Positions 14,968-36,312 of a stretch of 36,312 nt of DNA are shown here, one piece after another. A program made the translations under genes and the position numbers. The DNA lies in contig QMSR01000001.1 in the NCBI GenBank assembly GCA_003649695.1, positions 1-36,312 on the forward strand, read 5' to 3'. Each line of letters begins with the position of its first letter. Position 1 is the stretch's first letter. Below the pieces are notes generated by a model. The model ran no database searches. It saw only the letters and a list, made by a program, of their open reading frames with translations, and was not told where the DNA came from. The DNA is from Thermoplasmata archaeon. GTDB taxonomy: Archaea; Thermoplasmatota; Thermoplasmata; Thermoplasmatales; B87-G9.

Positions 14968-15165
14968 TCAGTATGAACTATTGCATGCCTTCTCATACAA
15001 GGCATTGATCTTTGATGCCTGTCGATGTGAAAAATCTTCGTCGGAACAATGACTGTAGGTGATCTTCTTCTTCATGCTCTTAATGAAATCGACCTCCCAA
15101 TCATTCCCTATCAGATGCACCACCTCATCAATTTCCTCAATTTTCTGCTTCAGCGTCAATGACAT
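14968..15165 (-). CDS. Hypothetical small protein
   Basis: ATG at 15165 with AAGGAGG 7 nt upstream. The track start at 15192 would lie further inside the polymerase gene. Confidence 0.5.
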   Translation of the reverse strand: MSLTLKQKIEEIDEVVHLIGNDWEVDFIKSMKKKITYSHCSDEDFSHRQASKINALYEKACNSSY

Positions 15166-16547
15166 ATCTCCACCTCCTTCTTCTGCGACCAATTCCCATC
15201 TACTGGAGTGACCTCAGCTTCGATCTCTAATGGGACGTTGATCCATTTCCACCGCCTCGTCAATTTCTTCGTCATCACATAATTTGCCAATGCCAAAAAA
15301 TCATCTAGTTCTTCATGCGGGACATCAGCTACAATACTATCATGAATCTGCCCTACAATCAAAGTCTTCATGTGTCTCTTTCTCAATTCCTTCAGCACCA
15401 ACTGGATGAGCGACCATAAGAGACAATGAAACGCAGAGCCTTGGACCGGATAATTGATAATCTCATTCCTCTTCATGTATCCTTGGCAGATGAATCCGGT
15501 CTTTGTTTTCATCCACCCTCTTTCCTGATATTTCTTGACCCATCTCTGCTTCCATCTTGCATACACTGAGAATCGTTTTTCCCAGAAATGCTTCTCCACC
15601 TGCTGAATATGGTGCTCAAATGTTCCTTTCACAGGTTTTTCCTTTGGATCTAGATCACCCAATCTTTTGATTCCTTGAGACTTCAGATGCTCTTTCAATG
15701 GGGTTCCTGAAGCTGTTTCCAGATGCATCGAATCTATGGCCTCCCATAGACTTCTGGCGCAATCCAGATACCAGTCACCGTAGAATTGTGGAAAGACAAA
15801 CATATTCTTCCCGCAATATCTCACTTTTTTCGTCACTTCATCTTGCGAGAGCCGATAGCATTCCATCGCCATATCACGATGCATGTCCTTGGTCTCATCA
15901 CAGATGTATTCGATCATCACTGGGTCTTTATGGTAACAGGCTGCTACCCTCACCTCTATTCCCGAGTAATCCAGCTCCACCAAATGACGACCTTTTCTGG
16001 CAATGAATGCCGTGCGCACCAGCTTCCCTATCTCTTCATTGCGAATCGGGATATTCTGAAAATTTGGAGAGTCAGAAGAAGACCGGAAGGTAGATGCCAG
16101 ATGAAGATTGAATACAGGGTGAACATACCCATCCACCACCTCTCTCTTCACTCCCTTCAAATATGTCCCGACAGCCTTCTCTAATTTCTTGATCTCCAGA
16201 TAGGATTGGACAAAGGGATGGTCAATCGCTGTCAATGCCTTCTCGTCTGTCTTTGGTTTTCCTGACGAGGTCAATGCCGTAGATTTATACCCCATTTCAT
16301 TGAATAGGATATCACCTAGCTGAACAGTAGAATTGATGTTGGTTTTCCTCTTGTATTTCTTCCGCCATAATTTCATGATCTCACTGCTGTCATTCCTGGC
16401 CTTGAGCCTTTTAATTCTCCTCTGCGTCCTGATTATCGCATTATCCAAATATTTTTCATCAATCCGGAGCCCAGCACCTTCCACTCTCGCGAGAGCCAAG
16501 GATCCTTGATGAAGCAATTGGTATGCATTGATATCATATGGTATCAC
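15156..16547 (-). CDS. Family A DNA polymerase, polymerase (palm/fingers/thumb) portion only
   Basis: Motif A VELDYSGIEVRV, motif B RYCGKNMFVFPQFYG, motif C QIHDSIV. No ATG near the 5' end. GTG at 16547 (TTG at 16550) with AAGGAG 7 nt upstream. Confidence 0.9.
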   Translation of the reverse strand: MIPYDINAYQLLHQGSLALARVEGAGLRIDEKYLDNAIIRTQRRIKRLKARNDSSEIMKLWRKKYKRKTNINSTVQLGDILFNEMGYKSTALTSSGKPKTDEKALTAIDHPFVQSYLEIKKLEKAVGTYLKGVKREVVDGYVHPVFNLHLASTFRSSSDSPNFQNIPIRNEEIGKLVRTAFIARKGRHLVELDYSGIEVRVAACYHKDPVMIEYICDETKDMHRDMAMECYRLSQDEVTKKVRYCGKNMFVFPQFYGDWYLDCARSLWEAIDSMHLETASGTPLKEHLKSQGIKRLGDLDPKEKPVKGTFEHHIQQVEKHFWEKRFSVYARWKQRWVKKYQERGWMKTKTGFICQGYMKRNEIINYPVQGSAFHCLLWSLIQLVLKELRKRHMKTLIVGQIHDSIVADVPHEELDDFLALANYVMTKKLTRRWKWINVPLEIEAEVTPVDGNWSQKKEVEICH

Positions 16548-17736
16548 CAATAATCTCCTTCTGCCGTTCCATGATCATATATTCTATGAGGCTGTCCAAT
16601 CCATTATATACCAACAGATCTCTAGTACCTATCTGATCTATACTATTCAGGAGATTGGCATGCTTAGATTTGAGATATGGAAAGATATGAGAATTGTAAT
16701 CAGAAATGCCCAAAAGTGAGTAGGCTTGGAATTTGACGGAGGTGACATGCGAATGATTGGTGAGGACATGAGCCATCAGCATGGTGTCCCAATACCAGTT
16801 CTCCACTCTACATCCCAGTTTCGCCTTTGTCCATCGCTCCTCATATTTGATGTTGGCTGCTACCTTTCTCAGAGGTGATTGCACCACTCGCCTAAGAGCT
16901 CTATGCTCCTTTTCAGTGATCATACAGGCGAAGGTATCCTCACCATTCAAACAAAAAGAAACGCTGACAATGCGTTGCTCAGCTCGCTCTGGCTTCAATC
17001 CCGTCCCTTCGTAATCAAATGCGACGATGCCTTTCTTCTTTGCGAGATCAGCCATTCTCTTACGTGCCAGACGTGGTGATGTAATGATTTCGATCTTCGA
17101 CTCCAGGTCACTCAATGAAACAGGTGGCAAAGGCTCTTTCTCCAATGACATCGCATGCTCAAGATGACGGCGAAATATGCCCATGAGACATTCATCTTTG
17201 CCCATCCGCAAGATATATGAGGGGTGATATGTAGGACAGAGCCATGCGCGATGTGTACTGCTCGGAATGGTGAGACCAGCCCACTTTGAGATCGCACTTG
17301 TGTCCTTCTGATTCTCCCCTGTCAAAATACTACGTAGAGCGGAGCCTCCTAATAAGATGATGACTCTAGGTTTTAGGTCTCTTATGGTGTTGAGCAATGA
17401 TGCTCTGCAACATGAAATCATATAGGGTTCAATCTTATTCTCCGGAGGACGACATATTACAGCATTGGTCTTCCAGCAATCCTCCAGATCTACTCCTATC
17501 GACTTCAGGGTTCCTCTGAGCAAGTTTCCAGCATCACCGATCAATTGAACACCCTGACGGTCCTCTTGCTCTCCTGGAGCCTCGGCGACGAAGAGGACTT
17601 TATGCCTGCCCTTGCCAGTAGGTTTCATCTTGGGGCTGAGGCATTTTTTTGCCAGACCACATTCACCACATTTTGGAATGGTGGAAAGCCTGGGAGCCTT
17701 CCTTTCATAACTGTGAGGCGAGAAAAATCCTGCCAT
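16534..17736 (-). CDS. Family-4 UDG-like domain fused to the Pol A-type 3'-5' exonuclease domain
   Basis: UDG-like region: CGECGLAKKC, FVAEAPGEQED, GDAGNLL, HPSYILR. Exonuclease: ExoI AFDYEGTGL and ExoIII YNGLDSL. The ORF ends 14 nt inside the polymerase ORF. Confidence 0.85.
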   Translation of the reverse strand: MAGFFSPHSYERKAPRLSTIPKCGECGLAKKCLSPKMKPTGKGRHKVLFVAEAPGEQEDRQGVQLIGDAGNLLRGTLKSIGVDLEDCWKTNAVICRPPENKIEPYMISCCRASLLNTIRDLKPRVIILLGGSALRSILTGENQKDTSAISKWAGLTIPSSTHRAWLCPTYHPSYILRMGKDECLMGIFRRHLEHAMSLEKEPLPPVSLSDLESKIEIITSPRLARKRMADLAKKKGIVAFDYEGTGLKPERAEQRIVSVSFCLNGEDTFACMITEKEHRALRRVVQSPLRKVAANIKYEERWTKAKLGCRVENWYWDTMLMAHVLTNHSHVTSVKFQAYSLLGISDYNSHIFPYLKSKHANLLNSIDQIGTRDLLVYNGLDSLIEYMIMERQKEIIGDTI

Positions 17737-18897: not shown

Positions 18898-19836
18898 TCA
18901 TATGAGCCCTCTCTTCATCGACTTGAATGGGCGAGGCCATTCTATCCTCTTTTCCACCTCCTCCATATACCTCATATTGACCACTGCCCGAACCGCGACT
19001 GAATTAGACACTCCAGCCACCTCAATCTTCTCGACAATGACATGATCCTCATGCCGACAAAATATGTTTTCTTCGCCCCTGGCTGATACCTTGTATTTTC
19101 TCTCCTCTCTACGATATGACGATTTCCCTATCACCACTCCCATGTCCTTGAGATATTTATCCACCTGCTTCTTGTGTGCTGCATTCATAGAATCATAATG
19201 AGCACCCTTTTCTTTCCGCAGATCGTTCTTGGTGGAGAAATTCACCACACGAGGTGTCTTGAGATAATTTCGTTCTCCGTCTGGCTCAGTCCAAGGAATC
19301 ATCACCCCGCCATACATAGCACACCTCAACCATGATGCACTGTCACACGAATACCATGGATACCTCAGCATCAAAGGGACTGACGTCACCGCAAACCCAT
19401 GAAACTTGGCCTTGGGCATGCCTTTGTCATCACACACGATTCGCATGCATTGATCAAGCCACAACTGTCTCTGATAAGATGTGCGATCATTTGCAGGGGA
19501 TATTCCAAAGTATGGGACACCTCGACGAATAAATCGCCGCAGCCATTTGAAGTCATCGTTCTGATGGAAGACTGGAAGAACCTTTTCCACTGGCAGACCT
19601 GCCTTCAGCATACGCTGATAATTTTTCCATCCCAGCTCACAGGATGTCTCAATATTTTCTCTGGTGAGAGAAGCCTTGTCACCGGGCCTGCCTGGAATGA
19701 CGTCTAGTGCAACAATGACATCAATCACATCGAGGTGGTCTTTGCAGAATTCAATGTATGCGTCCAGGTCGACCTCAGACCCCTTTGTCCAGACCGAGAA
19801 CGCTCCAGAATCCATCATCAAAAGTTCGACGCTCAT
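18898..19836 (-). CDS. dpdA: DpdA-like DNA (7-deaza)guanine transglycosylase (TGT superfamily)
   Basis: MDSGAFS (compare TGT DSGGFQ), HGFAVTS, SCDSASW. Its ATG overlaps the queF stop by 1 nt (TAATG). Embedded in the preQ pathway genes. Confidence 0.75.
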   Translation of the reverse strand: MSVELLMMDSGAFSVWTKGSEVDLDAYIEFCKDHLDVIDVIVALDVIPGRPGDKASLTRENIETSCELGWKNYQRMLKAGLPVEKVLPVFHQNDDFKWLRRFIRRGVPYFGISPANDRTSYQRQLWLDQCMRIVCDDKGMPKAKFHGFAVTSVPLMLRYPWYSCDSASWLRCAMYGGVMIPWTEPDGERNYLKTPRVVNFSTKNDLRKEKGAHYDSMNAAHKKQVDKYLKDMGVVIGKSSYRREERKYKVSARGEENIFCRHEDHVIVEKIEVAGVSNSVAVRAVVNMRYMEEVEKRIEWPRPFKSMKRGLI

Positions 19837-20297
19837 TATTCCCTCAATTCCATTCTGATTGCAGGAGTATGGAACCCTTCTTTCTGACTCCATGTAGCAT
19901 GCACTCTGATGGCGAGTGCTCCCCTTGGTGCAAAATCACCTATGACATTCATGTAGACAGGATAAGATACCTGCACAAAATCACGCAGAATCTTTCCTGT
20001 GATACTCTCCATGAATGCTCCGAAATTCCGATAGGCGAACATGTAGAGCTTGATGCTCTTGCTCTCCAGACACACCTTATTCGGAATATATCGCACGGTA
20101 ATGGTGGCGAAATCTGGCTGGCCGGTCTTCGGGCAGAGAGAGGTGAACTCAGGGAAGCTCATCTCCACCATATAATCATCTCCGACATGACGATTTGGGA
20201 AGACCTCCAGCATCTCAACGCAAGGCTCTTCATACGTGTAATCCGTCTTATTGGACCCCAATGATTTCAATTTGCTCACATCATCCAATACAGCCAT
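19836..20297 (-). CDS. queF: NADPH-dependent 7-cyano-7-deazaguanine (preQ0) reductase, unimodular type
   Basis: EFTSLCPKTGQPDFATI (catalytic Cys/Asp) and the QueF motif ESKSIKLYMF. Close overall resemblance to Bacillus-type QueF as I recall it. Confidence 0.85.
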   Translation of the reverse strand: MAVLDDVSKLKSLGSNKTDYTYEEPCVEMLEVFPNRHVGDDYMVEMSFPEFTSLCPKTGQPDFATITVRYIPNKVCLESKSIKLYMFAYRNFGAFMESITGKILRDFVQVSYPVYMNVIGDFAPRGALAIRVHATWSQKEGFHTPAIRMELRE

Positions 20298-20306
20298 TCC
20301 TTCTCC

Positions 20307-21221
20307 TTATCCTCGAACAATAGTCAGAAATTCCTCTTTCACACCCTTCTCAGATTTGAAGACACCTTCGAGTGAAGATGTCACCATGATAGAATTTTGC
20401 TTCTCCACCCCTCTACTCGTCATGCAGAAATGTTGTGCCTCAAGAAGACATGCTGCTCCGAGTGGGCGAAGTTCTTTCATCAGAATGCTGGTGACTTGAC
20501 GACATATCCTCTCCTGGATCTGCAGACGGCGGGCGAAACACTCTAGCAATCGCGCCAGTTTGCTGATCCCCACCACCTTACCATCAGGAATGTAGGCTAT
20601 ATGAGCCTTGCCAAAGAATGGTAGAATATGATGCTCACAGGTGGAATAGAACTCGATGTCCTTCAGAACCACCATCTCATCTGATGAATCGTCCTCAAAT
20701 GTTTTGAGGATGTCTTTCGGATCCTGCCTGTATCCTCCATATAATTTATACCATGACCGAACCACTCTTTCCGGAGTCTCCAGCAACCCCTCCCTCTGAA
20801 CATCCTCACCAATATACTGCAGCATACGAACGACATTCTCCTCAGGACCTCGCTCCGCATTCATCCTCTCCCACGGGAACTCCACCCACCTATTCTTCCA
20901 TGATGAATTACGCTTGTCGATGAGACACATCCCTCGAGGATTTCCAGTGGTCTTTTTCCACATCTTCATGGTCCTTCCGGAATCATAGATGTCATCCACA
21001 ATGATATCAGCCAGACCACTATCCTCTGTGATGGATAATAGAGGTGAATGTTGAGCAATGGCCATCGCTGCATACACCCCTCCTCGAGGAATGCCAAAAA
21101 GACGGGCTCCTTCTGGCCATATGTCAAGAATGGCACGAGCACATTGTTTCGCTATATCCTTGACATCCTTCCAACTCAAGCGATAGATATCACTTTGTGC
21201 ATCTGAACACTCAGGCGCCAT
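20307..21221 (-). CDS. folE: Fusion protein: N-terminal type-I phosphoribosyltransferase-like domain (aa 1-120) plus GTP cyclohydrolase I (aa ~125-304)
   Basis: PRTase: LFGIPRGGVY, PRPP loop DIIVDDIYDSGRT, WVEFPWE. FolE: STCEHHILPFFGKAH, GISKLARLLECFARRLQIQER. AAGGAG lies 8 nt upstream of ATG 21221. Confidence 0.85.
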   Translation of the reverse strand: MAPECSDAQSDIYRLSWKDVKDIAKQCARAILDIWPEGARLFGIPRGGVYAAMAIAQHSPLLSITEDSGLADIIVDDIYDSGRTMKMWKKTTGNPRGMCLIDKRNSSWKNRWVEFPWERMNAERGPEENVVRMLQYIGEDVQREGLLETPERVVRSWYKLYGGYRQDPKDILKTFEDDSSDEMVVLKDIEFYSTCEHHILPFFGKAHIAYIPDGKVVGISKLARLLECFARRLQIQERICRQVTSILMKELRPLGAACLLEAQHFCMTSRGVEKQNSIMVTSSLEGVFKSEKGVKEEFLTIVRG

Positions 21222-21820
21222 AATGGGTTCTCCTTCACGAATTTGACTGCTGGCTGAAAATCTTCGGACAATGGCTGGATGTATAGGTGTCTGAATCGAT
21301 GCCGCAACATTGGTCCATACCTTCTCAATAGACCAATATCACCATTAGGATCCAGCACCACCTTCAGCTCATCTCCGCACCACTTCGAATCCACAAAATA
21401 TGACTCAATAATCTCATCAGATTGCACACCCAATTTCGGTGAGACCGTAATCCAATTGAGAATGTTACTCTGCCTCAAATCCTGCAATACAGGACGAGCC
21501 AGATTTGTCCCATTGGTCTCCATTGCTATCATGCACATAGGGAGTGATGTATGCAATGCAGTCACCAATTCTGCATATTTATGAATGGTAGGCTCCCCAC
21601 CAGTAATCACCACCAAAATATCCGAATGATCATGCGGAATCTGATGACTGATAGCCTTCACCACCTCATCTGCCGAACAATAGAATCTCGGAGGGACATG
21701 AGTATCACACCATGGACATTTCAGATTGCATCCCCATAGACGAAGGAATATTGCAGCTCTGCCTGTCCAATACCCTTCACCTTGAAGAGAGTAAAAGATT
21801 TCACTCACGGGATATACCAT
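21176..21820 (-). CDS. queE: 7-carboxy-7-deazaguanine synthase (radical SAM)
   Basis: EIFYSLQGEGYWTG, Fe-S cluster motif CNLKCPWCDT, and ITGGEPT. Confidence 0.85.
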   Translation of the reverse strand: MVYPVSEIFYSLQGEGYWTGRAAIFLRLWGCNLKCPWCDTHVPPRFYCSADEVVKAISHQIPHDHSDILVVITGGEPTIHKYAELVTALHTSLPMCMIAMETNGTNLARPVLQDLRQSNILNWITVSPKLGVQSDEIIESYFVDSKWCGDELKVVLDPNGDIGLLRRYGPMLRHRFRHLYIQPLSEDFQPAVKFVKENPLWRLSVQMHKVISIA

Positions 21821-22176
21821 GCTTTGTTCCCTTCGCTTTCCTGGACCTCCACCTGTTCCACGCGAGCTGATGAGTTAGAGAATGACAGGTGATTGTCAAC
21901 CTCCTCAGCAATCCACTTAGCGATATTCTCTGCCGTAGGGTTGATAATTTCTTCTGCGCCCACCACATCATTGATGCATTGATGATCCAGCTTATGCACT
22001 ATCTCCTTGAGAGATTTAAAGTCAATTACCATGCCTGTGCAATCCAATTCCTCTGCCTGCACTGTCACCACGATGATCCAATTATGTCCATGCATATTCT
22101 TACAAGCGGAATCATATGGCAAGTCCAGCCAATGAGCCCCTGCAACCTCGATTCGTTTTGACACTCGGAACATCAT
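21805..22176 (-). CDS. queD: 6-carboxy-5,6,7,8-tetrahydropterin synthase (PTPS family)
   Basis: AHWL...CKNMHGHNW, a size of ~120 aa, and its genomic context. Confidence 0.85.
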   Translation of the reverse strand: MMFRVSKRIEVAGAHWLDLPYDSACKNMHGHNWIIVVTVQAEELDCTGMVIDFKSLKEIVHKLDHQCINDVVGAEEIINPTAENIAKWIAEEVDNHLSFSNSSARVEQVEVQESEGNKAWYIP

Positions 22177-22835
22177 TTCTCCTCGTATGCGACCGGATCC
22201 GTCTTTCCAATGAGCCGAAATGCTTCAAGCCTCTCCTGACAGGCTCCACATTTACCACAGGCAAGAGGCTGATGCTTGTAACACGTCCTGGTCATCTCAT
22301 ATGGGACACCATGCTCATATCCCCACCTCAAGATGGACTCCTTGTCACTGTAGATGAAAGGAGCTTCCAGGCACACCTTATTATCTGTGCCAGCCATGAC
22401 TGCATCATTCATGGCTATCAAAAATTCGGGCCTGCAATCTGGATAGATGGCATGATCACCGCTATGAATGCCGAGAAATATCTTCCCAGCACCATTCGAT
22501 TCAGCAATGCCGGCCAAAATAGATGTGAATATCATGTTCCGGCCAGGCACCACCGTGAGCTTCATATTCTCATCCTCATAATGACCTTCCGGGATCTCAC
22601 CTCCACTGAGAAGCAGGTTGGACTTCAGCGCCTTTCCGACATTGCTCAGATCCAGCCGAATGAGATCAATTCCGAAATGCTGACAGAGACGGACAGCACA
22701 CTCACGCTCATATTCATTGTGCTTGCTGCCATAGGTAAAATTGACTGCCAGCGTCTTTCCCAAGATGTCCGAATACCTCAAAACAGTCGCAGAATCCATT
22801 CCACCTGATACGGATACCACGTGCTCATAACTCAT
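22173..22835 (-). CDS. queC: 7-cyano-7-deazaguanine (preQ0) synthase
   Basis: PP-loop SVSGGMDS and C-terminal zinc site C-x8-CGKCGAC. ATG at 22835 preceded by TAAGGAGGAGAATA. Confidence 0.9.
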   Translation of the reverse strand: MSYEHVVSVSGGMDSATVLRYSDILGKTLAVNFTYGSKHNEYERECAVRLCQHFGIDLIRLDLSNVGKALKSNLLLSGGEIPEGHYEDENMKLTVVPGRNMIFTSILAGIAESNGAGKIFLGIHSGDHAIYPDCRPEFLIAMNDAVMAGTDNKVCLEAPFIYSDKESILRWGYEHGVPYEMTRTCYKHQPLACGKCGACQERLEAFRLIGKTDPVAYEEK

Positions 22836-22850
22836 TATTCTCCTCCTTAA

Positions 22851-22904
22851 ATAAAACGCCTGAGAGCCCAGCACTTAATATCCATAAGGCTGGGCTGACT
22901 CAGG
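22851..22904 (-). terminator. Rho-independent terminator immediately upstream of the queC RBS
   Basis: Minus strand: CCTGAGTCAGCCCAGC, 16-nt loop, GCTGGGCTCTCAGG, then CGTTTTATTT, running directly into AAGGAGG. Confidence 0.6.
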
Positions 22905-29808: not shown

Positions 29809-30093
29809 TTACAGTCCGAATCCAATCTCATCCAAAATCGGATGACCCCAAAATCTCCGCTGAAGATGCTCCTTCAACTCACTGACAGTCATTCCTGCGA
29901 CAATATCACCCATAGCGTATATGTCACGGGAATATGGCTTTGATTTTGGGGTGATCACCACATATGCATAGGTGATTGGCTTCGTTCTCAGCCATTTCTG
30001 CACCTCTGCCCACTTGGTGGTGACCAGGTGAACCTCACCCCACATATCAATAGGGGTGTTGAATTCCTTGTGAATTATCCGGTATTCTCTCAT
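29809..30093 (-). CDS. Hypothetical small protein, first gene after promoter copy 2
   Basis: The track start at 30144 reads through the leader. The ATG at 30093 follows TTTTCACAAGGAGAAGAAA. Confidence 0.5.
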   Translation of the reverse strand: MREYRIIHKEFNTPIDMWGEVHLVTTKWAEVQKWLRTKPITYAYVVITPKSKPYSRDIYAMGDIVAGMTVSELKEHLQRRFWGHPILDEIGFGL

Positions 30094-30131
30094 TTTCTTC
30101 TCCTTGTGAAAACAAAAACAAAACACAAACA

Positions 30132-30274
30132 AAAACATAAGCAATGACTACATTGTTATATTACTATAACACATTGCATAAAGCAAATGATTTTTTGAAG
30201 TTTTTTTGATTATTTTTTGATAGAATGGTTTGACACCAGAAAACAGGTTATTTCTCAATCATAATTTTTTTGAT
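30132..30274. repeat. Copy 2 of the ~140-bp promoter-bearing dispersed repeat
   Basis: See the 4647-4788 entry. Confidence 0.85.
30156..30186 (-). promoter_or_regulatory. Sigma70-like promoter (copy 2)
   Basis: Minus strand: TTGCTT (30186-30181), 17-nt spacer, TAATAT (30163-30158). Core at 30156-30170. Confidence 0.55.
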
Positions 30275-30289
30275 AAAATTATTTGCGAT

Positions 30290-30359
30290 GATAATAAAAT
30301 GGGCGGGGGCTCTTTTTGCAGGTGTCGGCAGCACCCGAGGAAAGGAGGCGGCCCCGCCC
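30290..30359 (-). terminator. Structured GC-rich 3' region, putative terminator ending the late/transferase transcript
   Basis: GGGCGGGG (30301-30308) pairs with CCCCGCCC (30352-30359), closing a 43-nt loop that has an inner 4-bp stem. On the minus strand it is followed by ATTTTATTAT. Confidence 0.4.
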
Positions 30360-30364
30360 GAATT

Positions 30365-30997
30365 CTACACTGATACAGATATTCCTCCTGCTGAATATTG
30401 CTGACCCACGAAACCAGAATAAGGTGGATGGGGTGGGAAAGGCTCTGGCTGCACCCAATGAGCAGGGCATGGCAGGTCCGCATGTCTCAGCAGACTATCC
30501 CTGATCTGTGGCAAAACACACTTCTGAAGATACTTCATATCATCCACCCGTCTCATTTTCATCCTGCAATGTTCCTTGAATTCATTGAACCTTTTCAGTT
30601 TCCCTTTCACTCCCCACATACCACCAAATAAAGGCAAGCACAAATGATGAGGATGATCATGCATGCAATGAGCCTTCTTCCCGGATTCAATCCATGCTTG
30701 CACTGCCGCAGCTTCTCTGACATTTATACGCGAATCTGCGTCCCTGAAAATCACACGCTCCACCCCATCTTCCCATGCAGGCAGAAAACGCCACATCATA
30801 CCAGTATGCTTGCGCGATTTCCCCATTCTTCTGATCTCACATCCAAGCCTCCGTAATTGTTGAGTAGGTGTGGTATCCTCACAAAAAACAATCATTTTCC
30901 ATCCAGGATATATCTCAGGCATGAGCTTGGCGTTCTCTTCAGCGCCTCTGACATACATAGGATCATCGCCATATACCGAGAAGCTAACATATTTCAT
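30365..30997 (-). CDS. Putative glycosyltransferase (GT-A-like, FRDADSR motif)
   Basis: ATG at 30997 with AAGGAG 7 nt upstream. DxD-like RDADS and GGMWG motifs. The family is not identified. Confidence 0.4.
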   Translation of the reverse strand: MKYVSFSVYGDDPMYVRGAEENAKLMPEIYPGWKMIVFCEDTTPTQQLRRLGCEIRRMGKSRKHTGMMWRFLPAWEDGVERVIFRDADSRINVREAAAVQAWIESGKKAHCMHDHPHHLCLPLFGGMWGVKGKLKRFNEFKEHCRMKMRRVDDMKYLQKCVLPQIRDSLLRHADLPCPAHWVQPEPFPPHPPYSGFVGQQYSAGGISVSV

Positions 30998-31592
30998 ACC
31001 GCCACTCCTTTGCAATAGGTTCACAATACTTGCGGACCATCTCATGCCCCCATTTAGGCAATGATTCTTGCCATGTGTTTGGATGAACAGGACCAATATG
31101 ATCACCATGAATCTGCATGTCATCAATCTCATTGAAATTCTTCAATTTTTCCGCCCTTGCTTTATTTGCCGCCAACGAATATTTTTCTTTGAGATGATTC
31201 CTCACATTCTCATGAATATCCAGATCAAAATGGATTTCCAACAAGTCAAAAATCCAGTCATAATTGGAATAGAATGTCTCATACCTGAGGAGCATATGAG
31301 GAGAGCATACAACATATTTGAGCCCTACATACATGGTTGACATGACATCCAATTCAGCTTCTAGGCCTATCATACCATCGACCCCCTCACCCCCACGACT
31401 CAAGCGAATTCTGTAACGAGAGGCTGCCACGTCATATGGATTGCGTATGGTGATGATGGAGACAAGACCATCTTCATATTCCCAGGCATCTGGGTGAGTC
31501 TTCCCTATCTGTTGATCAGGAAAAATCTCCTGGACCAATTGCCACACGAGAGTTGACCCACTACGAGGGATCCCGCAGACCTGCAATTTCAT
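30984..31592 (-). CDS. PAPS-dependent sulfotransferase family protein
   Basis: 5'-PSB loop GIPRSGSTLVW, 3'-PB motif ITIRNPYDVAASRY, and a downstream LLRYETF. ATG at 31592 with AAGGAGG 7 nt upstream. Confidence 0.7.
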   Translation of the reverse strand: MKLQVCGIPRSGSTLVWQLVQEIFPDQQIGKTHPDAWEYEDGLVSIITIRNPYDVAASRYRIRLSRGGEGVDGMIGLEAELDVMSTMYVGLKYVVCSPHMLLRYETFYSNYDWIFDLLEIHFDLDIHENVRNHLKEKYSLAANKARAEKLKNFNEIDDMQIHGDHIGPVHPNTWQESLPKWGHEMVRKYCEPIAKEWRYEIC

Positions 31593-32358
31593 CTTCAATC
31601 CTCCTTCTCCAATATCGCATGTCCAACTTTTGCATTGACTCCCATTCAAATCTCTTTTGCAATTCAGGCAGTTCAGCCTCCAATCTCTCCCTCGTCACCT
31701 CTGACCAATCATTTACTCTAAGACATGGCATGTCGTCTAGAATGTCTGTGACCGGAGAACGAAGCACAACAGGGATAGATCCTAAAGCAATAGACTCCCA
31801 ATGACGATGGCAGTCAATTCCAGCACCAGGAGGAGACAGAACATAGTCATGAGACTGAATGTCTTGATAGAACTCACCAATCTCCACGTAATTTTCAGCG
31901 AACCCTCCTTTCGCTGTCGTCCATTCGAGCCCAGCAAATTGTTCATATAGACCCTCACGAGGATTGGGAATTCTTGGAATCTGTCGCATGAAATTCACAT
32001 ACATCAGATTCTTCCTCTCTCTTCTGCCCTCTCGTATCAGCGCGAGACACAATTCTTGAGAATCCCGACTGAACCGGAATCCTATAGGCAGATTCGTGAC
32101 TCTCTGATCATCTACCATAGCATTGTTTGAGAACCAGTGAACCACATTCGGAGGGCATTGTCTCATCATCTCATGAGTAAGAGATGCGTCTGAGAATGAT
32201 GTGAGTAAAATACATGAGCCAAGAGATCTGATCAGATGCAATTTCTCCGCAATCACATGAGTCCGCCCATAGATGATAGGACCAGGAATGACTTCTTCTT
32301 GATCAAATGACTGTCCTGCTATATCAGCATATCGCTGGTTGTCAATCGGTTCAAACAT
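31561..32358 (-). CDS. Exostosin-like (GT47-like) glycosyltransferase candidate
   Basis: YVLSPPGAGIDCHRHWESIALGSIPVV resembles the exostosin C-terminal FCLxPxGxxxxSxRxxEAxxxGCIPV block. Confidence 0.45.
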   Translation of the reverse strand: MFEPIDNQRYADIAGQSFDQEEVIPGPIIYGRTHVIAEKLHLIRSLGSCILLTSFSDASLTHEMMRQCPPNVVHWFSNNAMVDDQRVTNLPIGFRFSRDSQELCLALIREGRRERKNLMYVNFMRQIPRIPNPREGLYEQFAGLEWTTAKGGFAENYVEIGEFYQDIQSHDYVLSPPGAGIDCHRHWESIALGSIPVVLRSPVTDILDDMPCLRVNDWSEVTRERLEAELPELQKRFEWESMQKLDMRYWRRRIEDEIAGLRDPS

Positions 32359-32378
32359 ATCTCTCCATACCTGTAATG

Positions 32379-33032
32379 TTATCCTCTCTTCCTTTCATGG
32401 CCGGGGAAATTGTGACGTTTACGACCTTCATACAGAGCCCTGTCTTTCTTCCATTCCTTCAATGCCCTCATCAAATGGGGTGGCCGTTCTCCTCCATCCC
32501 TCTGCCAATGATCATGGTATTGTGACAGATCTCGTCTCTGCTGAAAGGCGTCAAGCAACACCGCCACCTCTTGTAATTCAGCGTCGCAAAAATAATGGAA
32601 ATATTGATCATAATATGGACCATTGCCGCCATAAGCCTCATCAATAAACCCTCTGCCAATCCAGGGAGAAGGAGCACACTCGTCAATGGAGCCGAACCGA
32701 TCTCCTGTAGGTTGCATGACACCAAACAAATCAGGAAATCTCTCTGCAAATTGCCTTGCGATCGTCTGACAATCAGCTTCTCTCGCAGGGAAAAGGTCGT
32801 CCCCTATACAAACCACCATATCTGCCTTCACCATGCGTGTCAGTACATTGATCGCATTGGGGAAACCCTTCCATTCTCTTGCGACACATACCGCATTACA
32901 TTCAGAAGGTCTGTCCCCAACATTATCCAATAAGACGGCTGTCTTGTATCCTGCTGCCTTCCATCTCTTTGCAGTTTCATTCGCGAGCTTTGGATGAGCA
33001 GAAGGCCATATGGCCCATACATCATACGGCAT
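32379..33032 (-). CDS. Hypothetical protein, possibly another transferase
   Basis: Well-supported ORF (GGAGGAAGGAT RBS). Only a CIGDDLFP acidic motif hints at a function. Confidence 0.5.
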   Translation of the reverse strand: MPYDVWAIWPSAHPKLANETAKRWKAAGYKTAVLLDNVGDRPSECNAVCVAREWKGFPNAINVLTRMVKADMVVCIGDDLFPAREADCQTIARQFAERFPDLFGVMQPTGDRFGSIDECAPSPWIGRGFIDEAYGGNGPYYDQYFHYFCDAELQEVAVLLDAFQQRRDLSQYHDHWQRDGGERPPHLMRALKEWKKDRALYEGRKRHNFPGHERKRG

Positions 33033-33642
33033 ATCCTTCCTCCTTCTGTTTCTTGTTGATGATATTCTTGAACCGTTTCGCCCCTCTGGTGTGCATGATG
33101 ACAGGACTCAGATCCGGTTGGGTCTTTTGTGTGAGTTCTGTGATCCACGTGTACTCCTGCGGCAATTCATAGAACCTGACCTTCGGATTCTGTTTTATTG
33201 CCATCTCCAGAGTACGCTGATCCCAGGCTGCCCGTCCATCTGGCAATTTTTCAGGATATTGCTCATTCAGCTTGATCCAGTCTCTCACCAATATCATACA
33301 CATTTTAGAACCAGAAAAATAGAGCGTCCCAGACAGTAATTCATTTGTCCTGCAGAAATGGACAGCCGCCACATCACAGTCAATGTCTTCCAGTATCAAT
33401 GGAGGGTGGACCATGATAGCGTCGACGTCCAGATACAGAATTGGGAGGCCTCTGTACTTCTTCAGCATTGACAGGATGACCAATGCCTTGTATTGTGTGT
33501 TCTTCTGCCAGCTGCCTAGATTCGGCACTCCCTGGATATCATACTCATATCCATTCGCTTCCAATGACAATTTGAGGGTTTCTGCCTCATGCTCATACGG
33601 AGTATTCTCAGTGAAGTACCCTACCACTTTCACTCGTCTCAT
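33022..33642 (-). CDS. Nucleotide-diphospho-sugar transferase (GT-A fold, DxD)
   Basis: VVGYFTENTPYEHEAETLKLSLEANG ... ILYLDVDAIM, the pattern typical of the Nucleotid_trans-type family. AAGGAGGATATT RBS. Confidence 0.55.
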   Translation of the reverse strand: MRRVKVVGYFTENTPYEHEAETLKLSLEANGYEYDIQGVPNLGSWQKNTQYKALVILSMLKKYRGLPILYLDVDAIMVHPPLILEDIDCDVAAVHFCRTNELLSGTLYFSGSKMCMILVRDWIKLNEQYPEKLPDGRAAWDQRTLEMAIKQNPKVRFYELPQEYTWITELTQKTQPDLSPVIMHTRGAKRFKNIINKKQKEEGYAV

Positions 33643-33653
33643 AATATCCTCCT

Positions 33654-34616
33654 TTACCTATTATCATATACACCTCCACCAAATGCCGAGCCATAAGAAG
33701 GTGTGTCCATTGCCGAAGTCATTGTGTGTTGAACCACTGTAGAATTCCCATCATCAGCTCCATCTGAACTCCGTTTCACTCGCAGTAATACACGAACATC
33801 AGTATCAGCTGAGAAGGGCCCTAGTGCATATCCGAAGAATGCTATATCTACCCTGAACTTTATCTCTTCCTCAATCGGAGTATCCACCAATGGATCAGGG
33901 TCAACTCCTGTGGTGGTGTAATAGAGTTGCCAGGTGTCCGCCTTATCATCACCATCTTTGGCGTAGTGATATTCTGCGGTGACTGTCAATCTATATCCGG
34001 AGGCTTCGCGAACCAAAAGATCTTGAGGAGATGATGGGTCTTGTCTCACAATATTGCCACTGGTGTCTATAGTATATTTCGTAGTGAATTGATCTAGACT
34101 GACTAAATCATATTCATTACGATATCGAACAGTAATATAAACATCTTTCGTCCCCACCAATGGTGGAGTGATGGAATAGTCAAACGGCAATGAGGTGCTC
34201 GTGGCTGCTGGTGGAGCACTGAAGTCAGGGAGAGCATCTTCTCCTATATATAGTTCATATTGACCAACATCAGCCACCCTGTAATACCCATTCAATGTCT
34301 GTGTGTATTTCAGCCATTGCGGAGGCTTGGCAGGTGAGCGACGAGCATGGCCAACGAGCATGCTGGGATGGATTGGTTTTGACGGAAGGAACCTGCAGAA
34401 GACGGAGGGGACCTGCGCGAATATAGTCCCATCTATGGGCTCTGTCGTCTCTCTGCGAATAATTTTGCCGTCGAGGAGACGCATAGGCGGATATTGCGCA
34501 AACAATACCCGCCTGAATGCGTTGACGTTTTTGCCGGCCACATCATTATTCGGTGCGGATGGTTGGCCGTACCTGAAGAACTGTTTTCTACTTCTACGAT
34601 GTGTCCAGCTTGGCAT
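33654..34616 (-). CDS. Hypothetical virion-associated protein, 320 aa
   Basis: Beta-rich, Thr/Ser/Asp-rich composition. Positioned between structural-looking genes. No motif recognised. Confidence 0.55.
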   Translation of the reverse strand: MPSWTHRRSRKQFFRYGQPSAPNNDVAGKNVNAFRRVLFAQYPPMRLLDGKIIRRETTEPIDGTIFAQVPSVFCRFLPSKPIHPSMLVGHARRSPAKPPQWLKYTQTLNGYYRVADVGQYELYIGEDALPDFSAPPAATSTSLPFDYSITPPLVGTKDVYITVRYRNEYDLVSLDQFTTKYTIDTSGNIVRQDPSSPQDLLVREASGYRLTVTAEYHYAKDGDDKADTWQLYYTTTGVDPDPLVDTPIEEEIKFRVDIAFFGYALGPFSADTDVRVLLRVKRSSDGADDGNSTVVQHTMTSAMDTPSYGSAFGGGVYDNR

Positions 34617-34621
34617 TGGAA

Positions 34622-35068
34622 TTACTCCTCAAAGATCATACGAGCTACGGCATTGACGTCAGCCCCTGCAGTCACAGCAATACCCAGGCGATCACCGCCA
34701 TTGATGACGAGTTCACCCCCGAACGGAGCCTGCCAGGTATAGCCGCCTTGCGGGTGGACCTGCTCGCGCATATTGACGTTGCCAGAAGAGGGTTCTGCGG
34801 TCGCGGTGTGCTGAGCCGTGGTCTGCAGGGTCTCGTCTCCGTCCTCGTCGATTTTGACCGGGGTGAGACTGCTCATTGTCCCGGCGTCAGTCTGCTTCAG
34901 CACCTCGACGAGTATCGGTGCAGCGGTGTTTGAAGTCCCATCAAAACTGATTGAGATCTCCTTGACCTTTACTCTGTGATTCGCTGCAGCCACAAGTTGC
35001 AGCAAAGTTTTCTTCGAGGTTCCCGTTGCAACCTCTGCTGTCTGTGCTACTGCTAAAATACCAGCCAT
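34622..35068 (-). CDS. Hypothetical small structural-type protein, 148 aa
   Basis: Compact beta-rich sequence in a visibly more GC-rich segment, next to the fibre-like gene. Confidence 0.55.
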   Translation of the reverse strand: MAGILAVAQTAEVATGTSKKTLLQLVAAANHRVKVKEISISFDGTSNTAAPILVEVLKQTDAGTMSSLTPVKIDEDGDETLQTTAQHTATAEPSSGNVNMREQVHPQGGYTWQAPFGGELVINGGDRLGIAVTAGADVNAVARMIFEE

Positions 35069-35090: not shown

Positions 35091-36312
35091 CTACCAAACT
35101 AAAACATCACTTGGAATTCTGTCTATCGGTCTCGCTATTCTATGCCGCTCCCGTTTATTCAGTAATACCGCTAGAGCTGAATATTCCTCCGTCGGAACGG
35201 TGAAATCAGCTGTCCATCGAGCAATACCATTTGAAATTCTCACCTCGTCAATCCATCCATTGAAATAATTTGTGCCATCTCCAACCTGTCCAATATATAG
35301 ACTGCCTGCAAGATTTGGGTATCCAGCATATGTCGCAGTCGTGCCTAGTTGCAGGCCATCCGCAAATAGATACCAGGTGGAGCCACTGCGAACGACCGCG
35401 ACATGATGCCAGGTGTCGGCAGATGGTGTCCATGCACGATACATATCCAGCACCCATACACCTCCGGAATAGATTGAAAATTCAAGACCATTTGTGGTAT
35501 TGTAATCAAATCGCAGTAGATTTGATGCGTCCTGATATTGTGCGATGAATACAGCACTCGTCGGCGTGCCGTTAAAGCGGACCCAACAATCCCAAGTGAA
35601 ATCACCGCTATGATACCAATCATCAGAATCAAGAACTGTCAGATAATCACCAGTCCCGTCAAACTTTCCACTCGCCCCACCGAATTTATATTGACTAGAA
35701 TCAATCTGTGCATCGCCATTCGCTGTTACAGTATGAGGTGAAAATGAGTCATCAACGAATGTTGTGGCACCTCCATTCAGGTGCAATAGTAATTTTGTAT
35801 TGGCATCAGAAGAATATTCCGCAGAAGGAACAGTGAAACCTGCTGTCCAACGCGCACTATCAGAGATTCTCACCTCATCCAGATATCCCTCAAATTTGTA
35901 TAGTGACCCACCACTCCAACCACCGATATAAAAATCTTGACCGGTCAGATTATTGACACTCTCGGTACTAGTCTGGTCGCCACCCTCTTGTGTCCCGTTG
36001 ACAAATAGTTTCCAGGTTGAACCTGTTCTGACTACAGCGACATGATACCACGTATCAATAGCCAATGTTGTCGTCCCTGTGATAATGACACCTACTCCAG
36101 CATTCTGAAAGAAAAACCGGAATTTGCCGAGGTTCACATCAAGGAATAATTGATTGTTGCTGGATAGATACCTGCTGAAAATAGTGTCCCCGCCTGAATC
36201 TGTCGTGGTACGTCGACACCAACAATCCAAGGTGAAATCACCTGTCCCAAAATCAAAATCTGTAGATGATGCAACAACCAGATCATCATTTGTCCCGTCC
36301 AATACCAAACTG
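35091..36312 (-). CDS. Tail-fibre / receptor-binding-type protein with two tandem LamG (concanavalin-A-like lectin) domains; 5' end outside the window
   Basis: The pattern is seen twice: GDFT(L/W)DCW ... W(Y/H)HVAVVR(T/S)GSTW(K/Y)LF(V/A)(N/D)G ... (L/I)DEVRIS ... RWTA(G/D)FTVP(S/T)(A/E)EYS. The reading frame stays open to the window edge. Confidence 0.75.
   Translation of the reverse strand, partial: SLVLDGTNDDLVVASSTDFDFGTGDFTLDCWCRRTTTDSGGDTIFSRYLSSNNQLFLDVNLGKFRFFFQNAGVGVIITGTTTLAIDTWYHVAVVRTGSTWKLFVNGTQEGGDQTSTESVNNLTGQDFYIGGWSGGSLYKFEGYLDEVRISDSARWTAGFTVPSAEYSSDANTKLLLHLNGGATTFVDDSFSPHTVTANGDAQIDSSQYKFGGASGKFDGTGDYLTVLDSDDWYHSGDFTWDCWVRFNGTPTSAVFIAQYQDASNLLRFDYNTTNGLEFSIYSGGVWVLDMYRAWTPSADTWHHVAVVRSGSTWYLFADGLQLGTTATYAGYPNLAGSLYIGQVGDGTNYFNGWIDEVRISNGIARWTADFTVPTEEYSALAVLLNKRERHRIARPIDRIPSDVLVW

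Follow-up and report, generated by a model that had tools for sequence, protein, structure and literature searches.

A compact glycosyltransferase–sulfotransferase gene cassette at the end of the virion-gene unit of an uncultivated tailed phage, with a candidate role in the synthesis of a sulfated glycan

We analyzed a 36,312-nucleotide stretch of DNA (hereafter the window: positions 1 to 36,312 of contig QMSR01000001.1, assembly GCA_003649695.1), which we read as phage DNA despite its archaeal label, and uncovered in it a block of five consecutive genes, here termed A to E in the order of their transcription, that directly follows genes for virion components. We give an even chance to the composite reading that this block is a phage-encoded cassette for cytoplasmic glycan assembly that terminates the virion-gene unit, with a sulfated product and with a virion protein as the favored acceptor. 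The parts of this reading differ in strength: it is very likely that the block encodes glycan-building enzymes along with an active sulfotransferase; sequence and gene context make it fairly likely that the product is a sulfated glycan; and the proposal that this glycan is placed on a virion protein stands at, or slightly short of, an even bet.

All five open reading frames (ORFs) listed in the first-pass annotation were recovered with the same boundaries (Table 1) on the minus strand, as is every ORF of note in the window, and the motifs it had quoted (LDVD in A, GDD in B, GIPRSGST and IRNPYDVAAS in D, FRDADSR in E) are present and are invariant or nearly so in the alignments of the respective families. 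Each gene has a Shine–Dalgarno (SD) site. The mechanically delimited ORFs of D and E extend further 5′, to 31649 and 31132, respectively; we nevertheless take the ATG codons at 31592 (D) and 30997 (E) as the correct starts because three lines of evidence agree: an AGGAG/GGAGG SD site lies 5–9 nt upstream of each, the homologues begin to align at the residues encoded there, and the gene calls on ENA contig k141_2289356, from a second public assembly, are exactly 206, 217, 265, 202 and 210 residues. Some other public gene calls are too short, with a D of 187 residues lacking the P-loop and an E of 197. The genes are tightly packed: from gene G, upstream of the cassette, through E the intergenic distances are −32 to +22 nt, the overlaps between cassette genes are 11–32 nt, and D overlaps both C and E (by 14–32 nt). 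None of the five proteins has a membrane helix, the maximal hydropathy over 19 residues on the Kyte–Doolittle scale being at most 1.49. Searches of all five against PHROGs and NCBIfam gave nothing useful, and single-sequence Pfam searches yielded only sub-threshold matches for C and D; the assignments below therefore draw on family profiles, structural models and gene context.

The product of D belongs to a family of ~200-residue proteins (76 clusters), and its earlier designation as a sulfotransferase dependent on 3′-phosphoadenosine 5′-phosphosulfate (PAPS) was confirmed by profile searches and by modeling. Across 37 homologues the invariant positions comprise G7, R10, S11, G12, S13 and T14 of the P-loop GIPRSGST (residues 7–14, with PRSGST at 9–14), the presumptive 5′-phosphosulfate-binding (5′-PSB) motif; K31-T32-H33, in which H33 is the predicted catalytic histidine; and R50 and S58 of the 3′-phosphate-binding (3′-PB) motif IRxPxDVAAS. 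A YE motif and a C-terminal HIGxVxPGxW motif are invariant or nearly so. These align with PKSGTT of SULT1A and with KTHLP, RDPRDVAVS, YED and RKGxxGxW of solved sulfotransferases, and a family profile recovered retinol dehydratase (3e-10) and SULT1A members (~1e-6) from the PDB. The AlphaFold (AF2) model has a mean predicted local distance difference test (pLDDT) score of 95.7 and a predicted template-modeling (pTM) score of 0.91, and the best 50 listed matches in a Foldseek search of the PDB are all PAPS sulfotransferases (TM-scores of 0.59–0.72 on the query). The window protein itself falls below the Pfam gathering cut-offs (16.8 bits against 27 for PF13469; 15.2 against 22 for PF00685), and many of its homologues carry precomputed matches to these two models, which are faint in the two that were looked up (P0043 and P0038). 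The motifs, the structure-profile search and the confident model together identify D as a genuine PAPS-type sulfotransferase. With the cytosolic SULTs, retinol dehydratase and other members of the Sulfotransfer_1/Sulfotransfer_3 assemblage it has in common the fold, the 5′-PSB and 3′-PB motifs, the KTH signature and the GxW signature; however, at ~200 residues versus the ~290 of the known enzymes it would lack their substrate-binding loops, and its C-terminal motif has HIG in place of RKG. A protein search of 50,697 deposited phage records returned no homologue of D. Bacterial D-like genes, at ~30% identity, occur mainly in Verrucomicrobiota and in a few other metagenome-assembled genomes (MAGs), and one verrucomicrobial homologue sits between two sulfatase genes, the first of which has a GT2 gene two positions upstream of it. 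We considered such a bacterial cluster as a source of the cassette and rejected it, as the D-like genes of the Verrucomicrobiota and other MAGs have no A, B, C or E nearby.

Gene C links the block to a family with a biochemically characterized member. As a single sequence, C gives only sub-threshold matches to the Pfam models Exostosin_GT47 and RXYLT1_C. A profile of nine homologues matches the structures of the chlorovirus protein A075L (PDB 8avq/8asa/8q8i) at 2.2e-37, spanning profile positions 49–257 of 262 and residues 67–280 of the 282-residue chain. A075L, encoded by PBCV-1 (Paramecium bursaria chlorella virus 1), is a soluble beta-xylosyltransferase that builds the core of the N-glycan carried by Vp54, the major capsid protein, and with it CAZy family GT114 was founded; its catalytic base is Asp73 and its phosphate binders are Arg158 and Arg208 (PMC11571054). 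D57 (TSFSDAS), R134 (NPR) and R185 (CHRHWES) of C align with these three residues and are invariant in the nine homologues. We accordingly assign C, on sequence comparison, to the GT114 glycosyltransferases, with D57 as the predicted base and R134 and R185 as the predicted phosphate-binding residues; an inverting mechanism and a GT-B fold would follow from this kinship. Its earlier description as exostosin-like was thus on the right track, and GT114/A075L-like is the more precise placement.

Three further families complete the block. Sequence searches of Pfam, NCBIfam, PHROGs and the PDB left E without a match (a single apparent PDB match was rejected as a His-tag artefact). Its family is large (2403 clusters at the 90% level, E-value ≤0.001); none of the 120 listed homologues has a Pfam domain. 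Its AF2 model (pLDDT 95.8) finds the GT77 Skp1 galactosyltransferase 6mw5 as the top Foldseek match (7.5e-7), within a set of matches from 7.5e-7 to 1e-4 and TM-scores of ~0.5; other matches with the GT-A fold are AvpGT, archaeal and bacterial mannosyltransferases, glycogenin and LgtC, and nucleotidyltransferases such as KdsB, CMP-NeuAc synthetase and IspD also appear. R85, D86, D88 and S89, which include the DxD motif D86-A-D88, are invariant in 48 homologues. Given the modeled GT-A fold and this invariant R-D-x-D-S motif, E is probably a metal-dependent glycosyltransferase of a yet unclassified family, in keeping with its initial listing as an RDADS-type candidate. As a side observation, the record L014 (CAKLQH020000005.1, "Acinetobacter phage MD-2021a") encodes a 436-residue protein that contains an E-type domain and bears the annotation of a SPINDLY-family O-GlcNAc transferase; the record looks like a bacterial chromosome (recN, yqgF and type II secretion genes).

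Gene A represents the most widespread of the cassette families, with 109 homologous stretches in viral contigs. The DxD motif within its LDVD (D72 and D74) is invariant in 43 diverse homologues. Of 10 homologues, three match the Pfam family Nucleotid_trans (PF03407; best 1e-4), a match that the window protein itself does not attain, and the best PDB match of the 43-sequence profile is again GT77 6mw5, at a non-significant E-value of 0.67 that covers the DxD strand only. A is thus a probable GT-A-type glycosyltransferase with a weak GT77/Nucleotid_trans resemblance: of the original label "GT-A with LDVD", the motif stands and a DxD glycosyltransferase is plausible, and the family similarity stays below threshold. 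B, which had been listed as unknown with a GDD motif, does have that motif and no assigned fold, with no Pfam or PDB match even for a 32-sequence profile. Its family (1372 representative clusters at the 50% level, E-value ≤0.001) is informative through its domain fusions: of 34 longer proteins scanned, five are fused to GT2 domains, four to PglD_N and one to a sulfotransferase domain, and further fusions join B to sugar C-methyltransferase, NAD-epimerase/dehydratase, FkbM, MGAT4 and GT1/GT4 domains. One homologue is named "glycosyltransferase family 2" at NCBI. By association, then, B would belong to glycan synthesis. No profile of A, B or E gave a significant match to a PDB sequence, and profile–profile comparison revealed no relationship among the three, which are therefore not paralogues at a detectable level. 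In sum, at least three and probably four sugar-handling enzymes would accompany the sulfotransferase, with glycosyltransferase activity of A and B put forward on the above grounds.

The end of the block is marked by a GC-rich hairpin directly 3′ of the stop codon of E (30301–30359, minus strand; −29.8 kcal/mol, z = −2.4 against shuffled sequences), followed directly on its 3′ side by AUUUUAUUAU. The hairpin is the GC-rich structured region that had been noticed at 30290–30359. A consensus terminator scan missed the hairpin because its loop exceeds the limit of the scan; the element is best read as an intrinsic terminator. Matching hairpins stand at the cassette end in five relatives (L001, L006, L007, L008 and L011; loci in viral contigs are denoted by such numbers), in which the inner sequence, CCTTCCCGAGTGTTCAGCC...AAAAGACC, is conserved and the outer stem varies in sequence but keeps its pairing. 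Rfam has no family for the hairpin, and it may be more than a plain terminator. In a consensus scan no strong promoter was found inside the block, minus-strand matches never exceeding 9/12, and the count of promoter-like sites, 20 versus 13.1 ± 3.9 expected, is not clearly above expectation; there are weak hexamers and one weak terminator-like site (33589–33573). The earlier statement that no promoter or terminator intervenes thus stands in the sense that no obvious internal signal exists, and the proposed co-transcription with the virion genes agrees with how the genes are spaced, with the terminator-like hairpin and with the AT-rich gap of 220 nt that follows E, part of which is likely the start of the next transcription unit. 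Late co-expression of the cassette with the virion genes would be in line with this arrangement.

Comparison with viral contigs places the block in a larger family of cassettes. The order A-B-C-D-E recurs in at least nine other viral contigs, among them L001, L003, L006–L008, L010, L011 and L027, with partial copies elsewhere, at protein identities to the window of 37–65%; the closest cassette-bearing relatives are IMGVR_UViG_3300023284_001815 and IMGVR_UViG_3300022707_001079. The relatives carry additional genes: the unknown families c6 and c3, a radical-SAM (S-adenosylmethionine) enzyme, FkbM and Methyltransf_11-type methyltransferases, a PIG-L deacetylase, an NAD-dependent epimerase/dehydratase and a Sulfotransfer_2-like protein. 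They also have one to three tandem paralogues of D (two or three in the arrays of L001, L007, L008 and L011; Table 1) besides the separate Sulfotransfer_2-like gene, giving up to four sulfotransferases per cassette, which implies multiple sulfation sites; D and its paralogues always lie between C and E. The window is the minimal five-gene version. In the relatives the cassette is always 3′ of same-strand genes, and a strand switch follows it directly in every relative in which the cassette end is present, save L009, a truncated copy without E. Where anything is known of these upstream genes, they are annotated or inferred to be tail-fibre or structural genes: L001 has one with an Mtd_N domain, and A is directly preceded by a homologue of gene F, which abuts the cassette in the window, in L001, L009 and L011. 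The upstream families of the remaining relatives are unannotated. Flanking modules differ between the window and its relatives, which indicates that the cassette moves as a module. Genes of the A family are also found inside the head modules of two other, unrelated phage lineages, prototyped by L053 and L038 (Table 1). In the latter, the matches of k20, k30 and k16 are confined to PHROGs of unknown function; that these genes encode portal, protease/scaffold and capsid proteins is a guess from size and order. About 25 loci resemble these two, and in many of them A is one domain within a larger protein of 387–656 residues; roughly a quarter of the A-bearing head-module loci have a B-like gene, C and D are missing from all of them, and an E-like gene is present in just two. 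They may thus represent a simpler and widespread form of such a modification system. No cultured relative carrying the cassette was found: the window has no DNA similarity to the 50,697 deposited phage records, and the protein search with D was likewise negative.

We propose the following scenario for the action of the cassette. Late in infection, the five soluble enzymes would be made alongside the fibre and structural proteins. They would draw on host nucleotide sugars and host PAPS as donors, since the window has no genes for the synthesis of either. A, C, E and probably B would add sugars stepwise to an acceptor, and D would transfer sulfate from PAPS onto the sugar product. The presence of sugar enzymes alongside a sulfotransferase, and of tailoring genes and multiple sulfotransferases in the relatives, points to a sulfated, variably methylated oligosaccharide, the core of which the relatives would elaborate with O- and C-methyltransferases, a radical-SAM enzyme, a deacetylase and an epimerase, along with as many as four sulfotransferases. 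Genes for a lipid carrier, flippase or polymerase are missing from the window and from the annotated relatives L001 and L003; together with the solubility of the enzymes, this argues for assembly in the cytoplasm, directly on the acceptor. The acceptor would most likely be a fibre, baseplate or capsid protein, and the particle would thereby gain an anionic coat of sulfated oligosaccharide. Three observations favor a virion protein: in the window and its relatives alike, the structural transcription unit ends with the cassette; A075L, the sole biochemically characterized homologue of a cassette protein, acts on a capsid-protein glycan; and A-family genes lie within the head-morphogenesis modules of two unrelated lineages. 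As a broader generalization, which we advance only tentatively, an entire clade of uncultivated tailed phages might coat its virions (fibres or capsid) with sulfated, methylated oligosaccharides made solely by phage-encoded cytoplasmic enzymes, a homologue of the xylosyltransferase of the chlorovirus capsid glycan among them.

Several points weigh against this reading. The acceptor is proposed through guilt by association rather than from direct evidence, and the first-pass annotation, too, had put its candidate targets forward as hypotheses. For A, the similarity to a glycosyltransferase family stays below threshold, and for B there is none. The nearest solved relatives of D, retinol dehydratase and the SULT1 enzymes, are small-molecule rather than carbohydrate sulfotransferases, so that the case for a glycan as the target of sulfation comes from gene context. 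With no gene for PAPS synthesis, activity would depend on the host PAPS pool. The window lacks the families c3, c6 and c8 that nearly all relatives have. All its genes are on one strand, which makes co-orientation in itself uninformative, and there are weak promoter-like hexamers inside the block, for example at 33689–33660, just upstream of A. Finally, the end of a structural operon, next to fibre genes, is the classic place for "moron" genes that act on the host.

The last point bears on what we consider an unlikely alternative, namely that the cassette is a moron-like unit that alters the host envelope, modifying an O-antigen, capsule, exopolysaccharide (EPS) precursor or glycolipid at the cytoplasmic face and thereby blocking superinfection or keeping progeny off debris. 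Beyond the location, the variable neighboring modules would suit a movable unit of this kind, and soluble glycosyltransferases can act on lipid-linked intermediates; moreover, the E homologue of cyanophage S-SRM01 is within a large island resembling those for surface glycans, and the verrucomicrobial relatives of D lie beside sulfatases with a GT2 gene close by. However, no membrane segment is predicted in any of the five proteins (computed for the window proteins only), and the Pfam-annotated gene tables of L001 and L003 show no Gtr-like, Wzx/Wzy-like or acyltransferase genes. The cassette also lacks a promoter of its own and is separated by just 11 nt from the upstream structural gene, and the window, with replication machinery that looks lytic, has no integrase or repressor among the 23 ORFs searched. 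The head-module locations of the A family and the capsid-glycan activity of the closest characterized homologue of C likewise favor a virion target over an envelope one.

If D acted independently of its glycosyltransferase neighbors, it might instead sulfate Tyr, Ser or Thr residues of a fibre protein, or a small molecule. Its minimal size of 200 residues and its small-molecule-type relatives would be compatible with this, as would the resemblance of its PRSGST P-loop to that of protein-tyrosine sulfotransferases, to which matches are non-significant (E-values 0.16–1.6); furthermore, Iyer et al. 2010 predicted sulfated tail-collar and collagen-like proteins encoded in bacterial operons (PMC2938197). 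Such operons need hydroxylases, however, and none is present among the searched window proteins or the cassette genes annotated in L001 and L003. In addition, D, like its paralogues, is invariably embedded between C and E, in the window with overlapping reading frames, and a B domain is in one instance fused to a sulfotransferase domain. We therefore regard glycan-independent sulfation as improbable. More improbable still, to the point of being a slim prospect, is that the cassette decorates a hypermodified DNA base, one candidate site being the amine of a 7-deazaguanine derivative that the DpdA, QueC, QueE and FolE homologues encoded in the window (18898–22874) would produce. Phage glycosyltransferases that add multi-sugar glycans to DNA are known (bioRxiv 10.1101/2023.12.21.572611). 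Against this, the cassette and the deazaguanine genes are 7.5 kb apart, with the hairpin, the intergenic gap and the replication genes in between; it travels with structural rather than replication genes; L003 has a different set of nucleotide-modification genes; and the characterized homologue of C acts on a protein-linked glycan. We rejected a link between the deazaguanine (dPreQ) pathway and the cassette, as in none of the relatives do genes of this pathway lie within 10 kb of the cassette.

Table 1. Coordinates of the cassette, of its surroundings in the window and of comparable features in related loci (SD, Shine–Dalgarno; aa, amino acids).
Feature	Sequence	Coordinates	Strand	Description and basis
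Gene A	window	33022..33642	minus	206 aa, soluble; probable GT-A-type glycosyltransferase; ORF and SD site
Gene B	window	32379..33032	minus	217 aa, soluble; GDD, QPxGD and HDHWQR motifs; glycan-associated via domain fusions
Gene C	window	31561..32358	minus	265 aa; predicted GT114 (chlorovirus A075L-like) glycosyltransferase; profile match to PDB
Gene D	window	30984..31592	minus	202 aa; predicted minimal PAPS-dependent sulfotransferase; motifs, profile, model
Gene E	window	30365..30997	minus	210 aa; predicted GT-A fold, DxD and His-rich motif HCMHDHPHH; AF2 model, Foldseek
Terminator-like hairpin and U-rich tract	window	30291..30359	minus	stem 30301-30359, tract 30291-30300; folding
AT-rich intergenic region	window	30145..30290	minus	from hairpin to next gene (29809-30144); promoter-like hexamers 30236-30209
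Gene F	window	33654-34616	minus	abuts cassette, 11-nt gap to A
Gene G	window	34622-35068	minus	upstream context of cassette
LamG fibre/baseplate-like gene	window	35091-36308	minus	cut by contig end; Laminin_G_3 1.8e-42
DpdA-like transglycosylase	window	18898-19893		7-deazaguanine set
GTP-cyclohydrolase-like ORF	window	19836-20297		7-deazaguanine set
FolE	window	20307-21221		7-deazaguanine set
QueE-like radical-SAM protein	window	21176-21820		7-deazaguanine set
Small ORF	window	21805-22176		7-deazaguanine set
QueC	window	22173-22874		7-deazaguanine set
Hairpin counterpart	L001	13580-13660		cassette end
Hairpin counterpart	L006	7870-7935		cassette end
Hairpin counterpart	L007	12250-12325		cassette end
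Hairpin counterpart	L008	14005-14085		cassette end
Hairpin counterpart	L011	12490-12560		cassette end
Sulfotransferase array	L001	10001-12003
Sulfotransferase array	L007	9077-10310
Sulfotransferase array	L008	9983-11829
Sulfotransferase array	L011	9983-11231
Head module with A-family gene	L053	2207-9352		portal - protease - major head protein - k7 (72 aa, unannotated) - head-tail adaptor - sialyltransferase-like - A
Head module with A-family gene	L038	3703-10543		terminase - k20 - k30 - head decoration - k16 - A

Among the genes upstream of the cassette, the one at the contig end codes for a protein that, in addition to its Laminin_G_3 (LamG) domain, matches PHROG families for the baseplate wedge and for virion structural proteins, in agreement with its earlier reading as a fibre-like protein in a structural neighborhood; its full length on contig k141_2289356 is 682 residues. 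The 5′ part of gene F is unusual. Homologues of F start with MATYTKTYRQ, which corresponds to about residue 103 of the window ORF, and an ATG-GCT at ~34318 is shifted by 1 nt relative to the reading frame that F follows downstream. The in-frame 5′ extension of ~300 nt (34318–34616) has no homologues, a higher GC content (0.53–0.55) and a reversed GC skew, and Rfam has no family for it; the second public contig gives the same 320-residue call. Candidate explanations for the stretch are a frameshift, a lineage-specific extension and an inserted element.

The NCBI deposit places the window contig in a "Thermoplasmata archaeon" MAG (DRN14_...) and a 68-kb relative in a "Candidatus Heimdallarchaeaceae archaeon". 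An archaeal virus was considered and rejected in view of a sigma-70 region 2 domain, DnaG, DnaB, PolA, a clamp loader, RecA and strong SD sites (a beta-clamp match is weak and sub-threshold: PF00712, 17.5 bits against a cut-off of 24.4), and the window looks like a bacteriophage mis-binned into archaeal genomes. With a replication machinery of its own it looks lytic; the negative result for integrase and repressor genes applies to the 23 ORFs searched, many small ORFs being outside that search and the genome being incomplete. The family A DNA polymerase is split over two ORFs, the first (16534–17736) combining a uracil-DNA-glycosylase-superfamily domain with a 3′–5′ exonuclease domain and the next (15156–16550) providing the polymerase domain.

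If the proposal of a sulfated virion glycan were true, it would furnish the first sulfated glycoprotein of a bacterial virus and would point to a glycosylation toolkit common to tailed phages and giant viruses. A phage-encoded pathway for sulfated glycans would surprise specialists, and a five-gene version with a bona fide sulfotransferase makes the idea directly testable, offering a tractable way to ask whether phage particles bear such glycans. A sulfated coat could change the charge of the particle, its adhesion to mucus, EPS or marine particles, its receptor recognition and its resistance to proteases. The small soluble enzymes themselves—a 200-residue sulfotransferase, a GT114 member and the two unclassified families B and E—might find use in glycoengineering. 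In the literature searched we came across neither tailed phages with a conserved cassette of glycosyltransferases plus sulfotransferase, nor phage members of GT114, nor sulfated glycans on phage virions. This agrees with the first-pass annotation, which knew of no such system described for phage virions, with the qualification that a parallel prediction exists for giant-virus fibril clusters.

Among known phage systems, virion glycosylation by phage enzymes has to our knowledge been shown so far only for mycobacteriophages, and we know of no sulfotransferase reported there. Work by Freeman et al. (2023, Cell Host Microbe) is said to have associated the mycobacteriophage glycosyltransferase genes with the structural module, and the glycosyltransferase genes of the present cassette are likewise linked to a structural module. 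The enzyme families differ, and the mycobacteriophage glycans were shown by mass spectrometry, whereas the cassette is known here from genes alone. Capsid and tail-tube subunits are the targets of the phage-encoded glycosyltransferases there (Freeman et al. 2023, as summarized in PMC12619734). The seroconversion systems of phages (GtrA/GtrB/Gtr and O-acetyltransferases) resemble the cassette in placing sugar-modifying genes near the end of the structural region; however, they comprise membrane proteins that act on lipid-linked sugars, usually in temperate phages, whereas the five cassette proteins have no membrane segments and gave no match to Gtr-related families in Pfam, PHROGs or NCBIfam. 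In S-SRM01, a T4-like jumbo cyanophage, the E homologue lies among genes for GT25, GT2, fucosyltransferases, an FkbM methyltransferase and GDP-fucose synthesis, in an island not arranged as the cassette is. Sulfotransferase genes have also been noted in cyanophage and OM43-phage genomes, where their role was called "unclear" (PMC10580990).

The closest conceptual precedent for the sulfate part of the cassette comes from the Megavirinae: the fibril-glycosylation clusters of Moumouvirus australiensis (ma457–ma468) and Cotonvirus include a predicted sulfotransferase, and sulfated sugars have been inferred for them without experimental validation (PMC10117803). These clusters belong to a different virus realm, use other glycosyltransferase families and carry their own sulfate adenylyltransferase/adenosine 5′-phosphosulfate (APS) kinase and nucleotide-sugar pathways, neither of which is part of the window cassette. 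For the glycan part, the parallel is the capsid-glycan machinery of PBCV-1 (A075L/GT114, A064R, A111/114R and FkbM-type methyltransferases). PBCV-1 is a giant algal virus, unlike the tailed phage of the window with its bacterial-type replication genes; the cassette has no detected homologues of the other PBCV-1 glycan enzymes, and its one to four sulfotransferases have no PBCV-1 counterpart in the literature searched. As PBCV-1 does, the cassette would rely on soluble, cytoplasmic, virus-encoded enzymes rather than on host secretory machinery, the relatives of the cassette also carry FkbM-family methyltransferases, and the homology of C to A075L, with the catalytic Asp and the Arg residues kept, suggests that glycan-building genes are shared across very distant groups of viruses.

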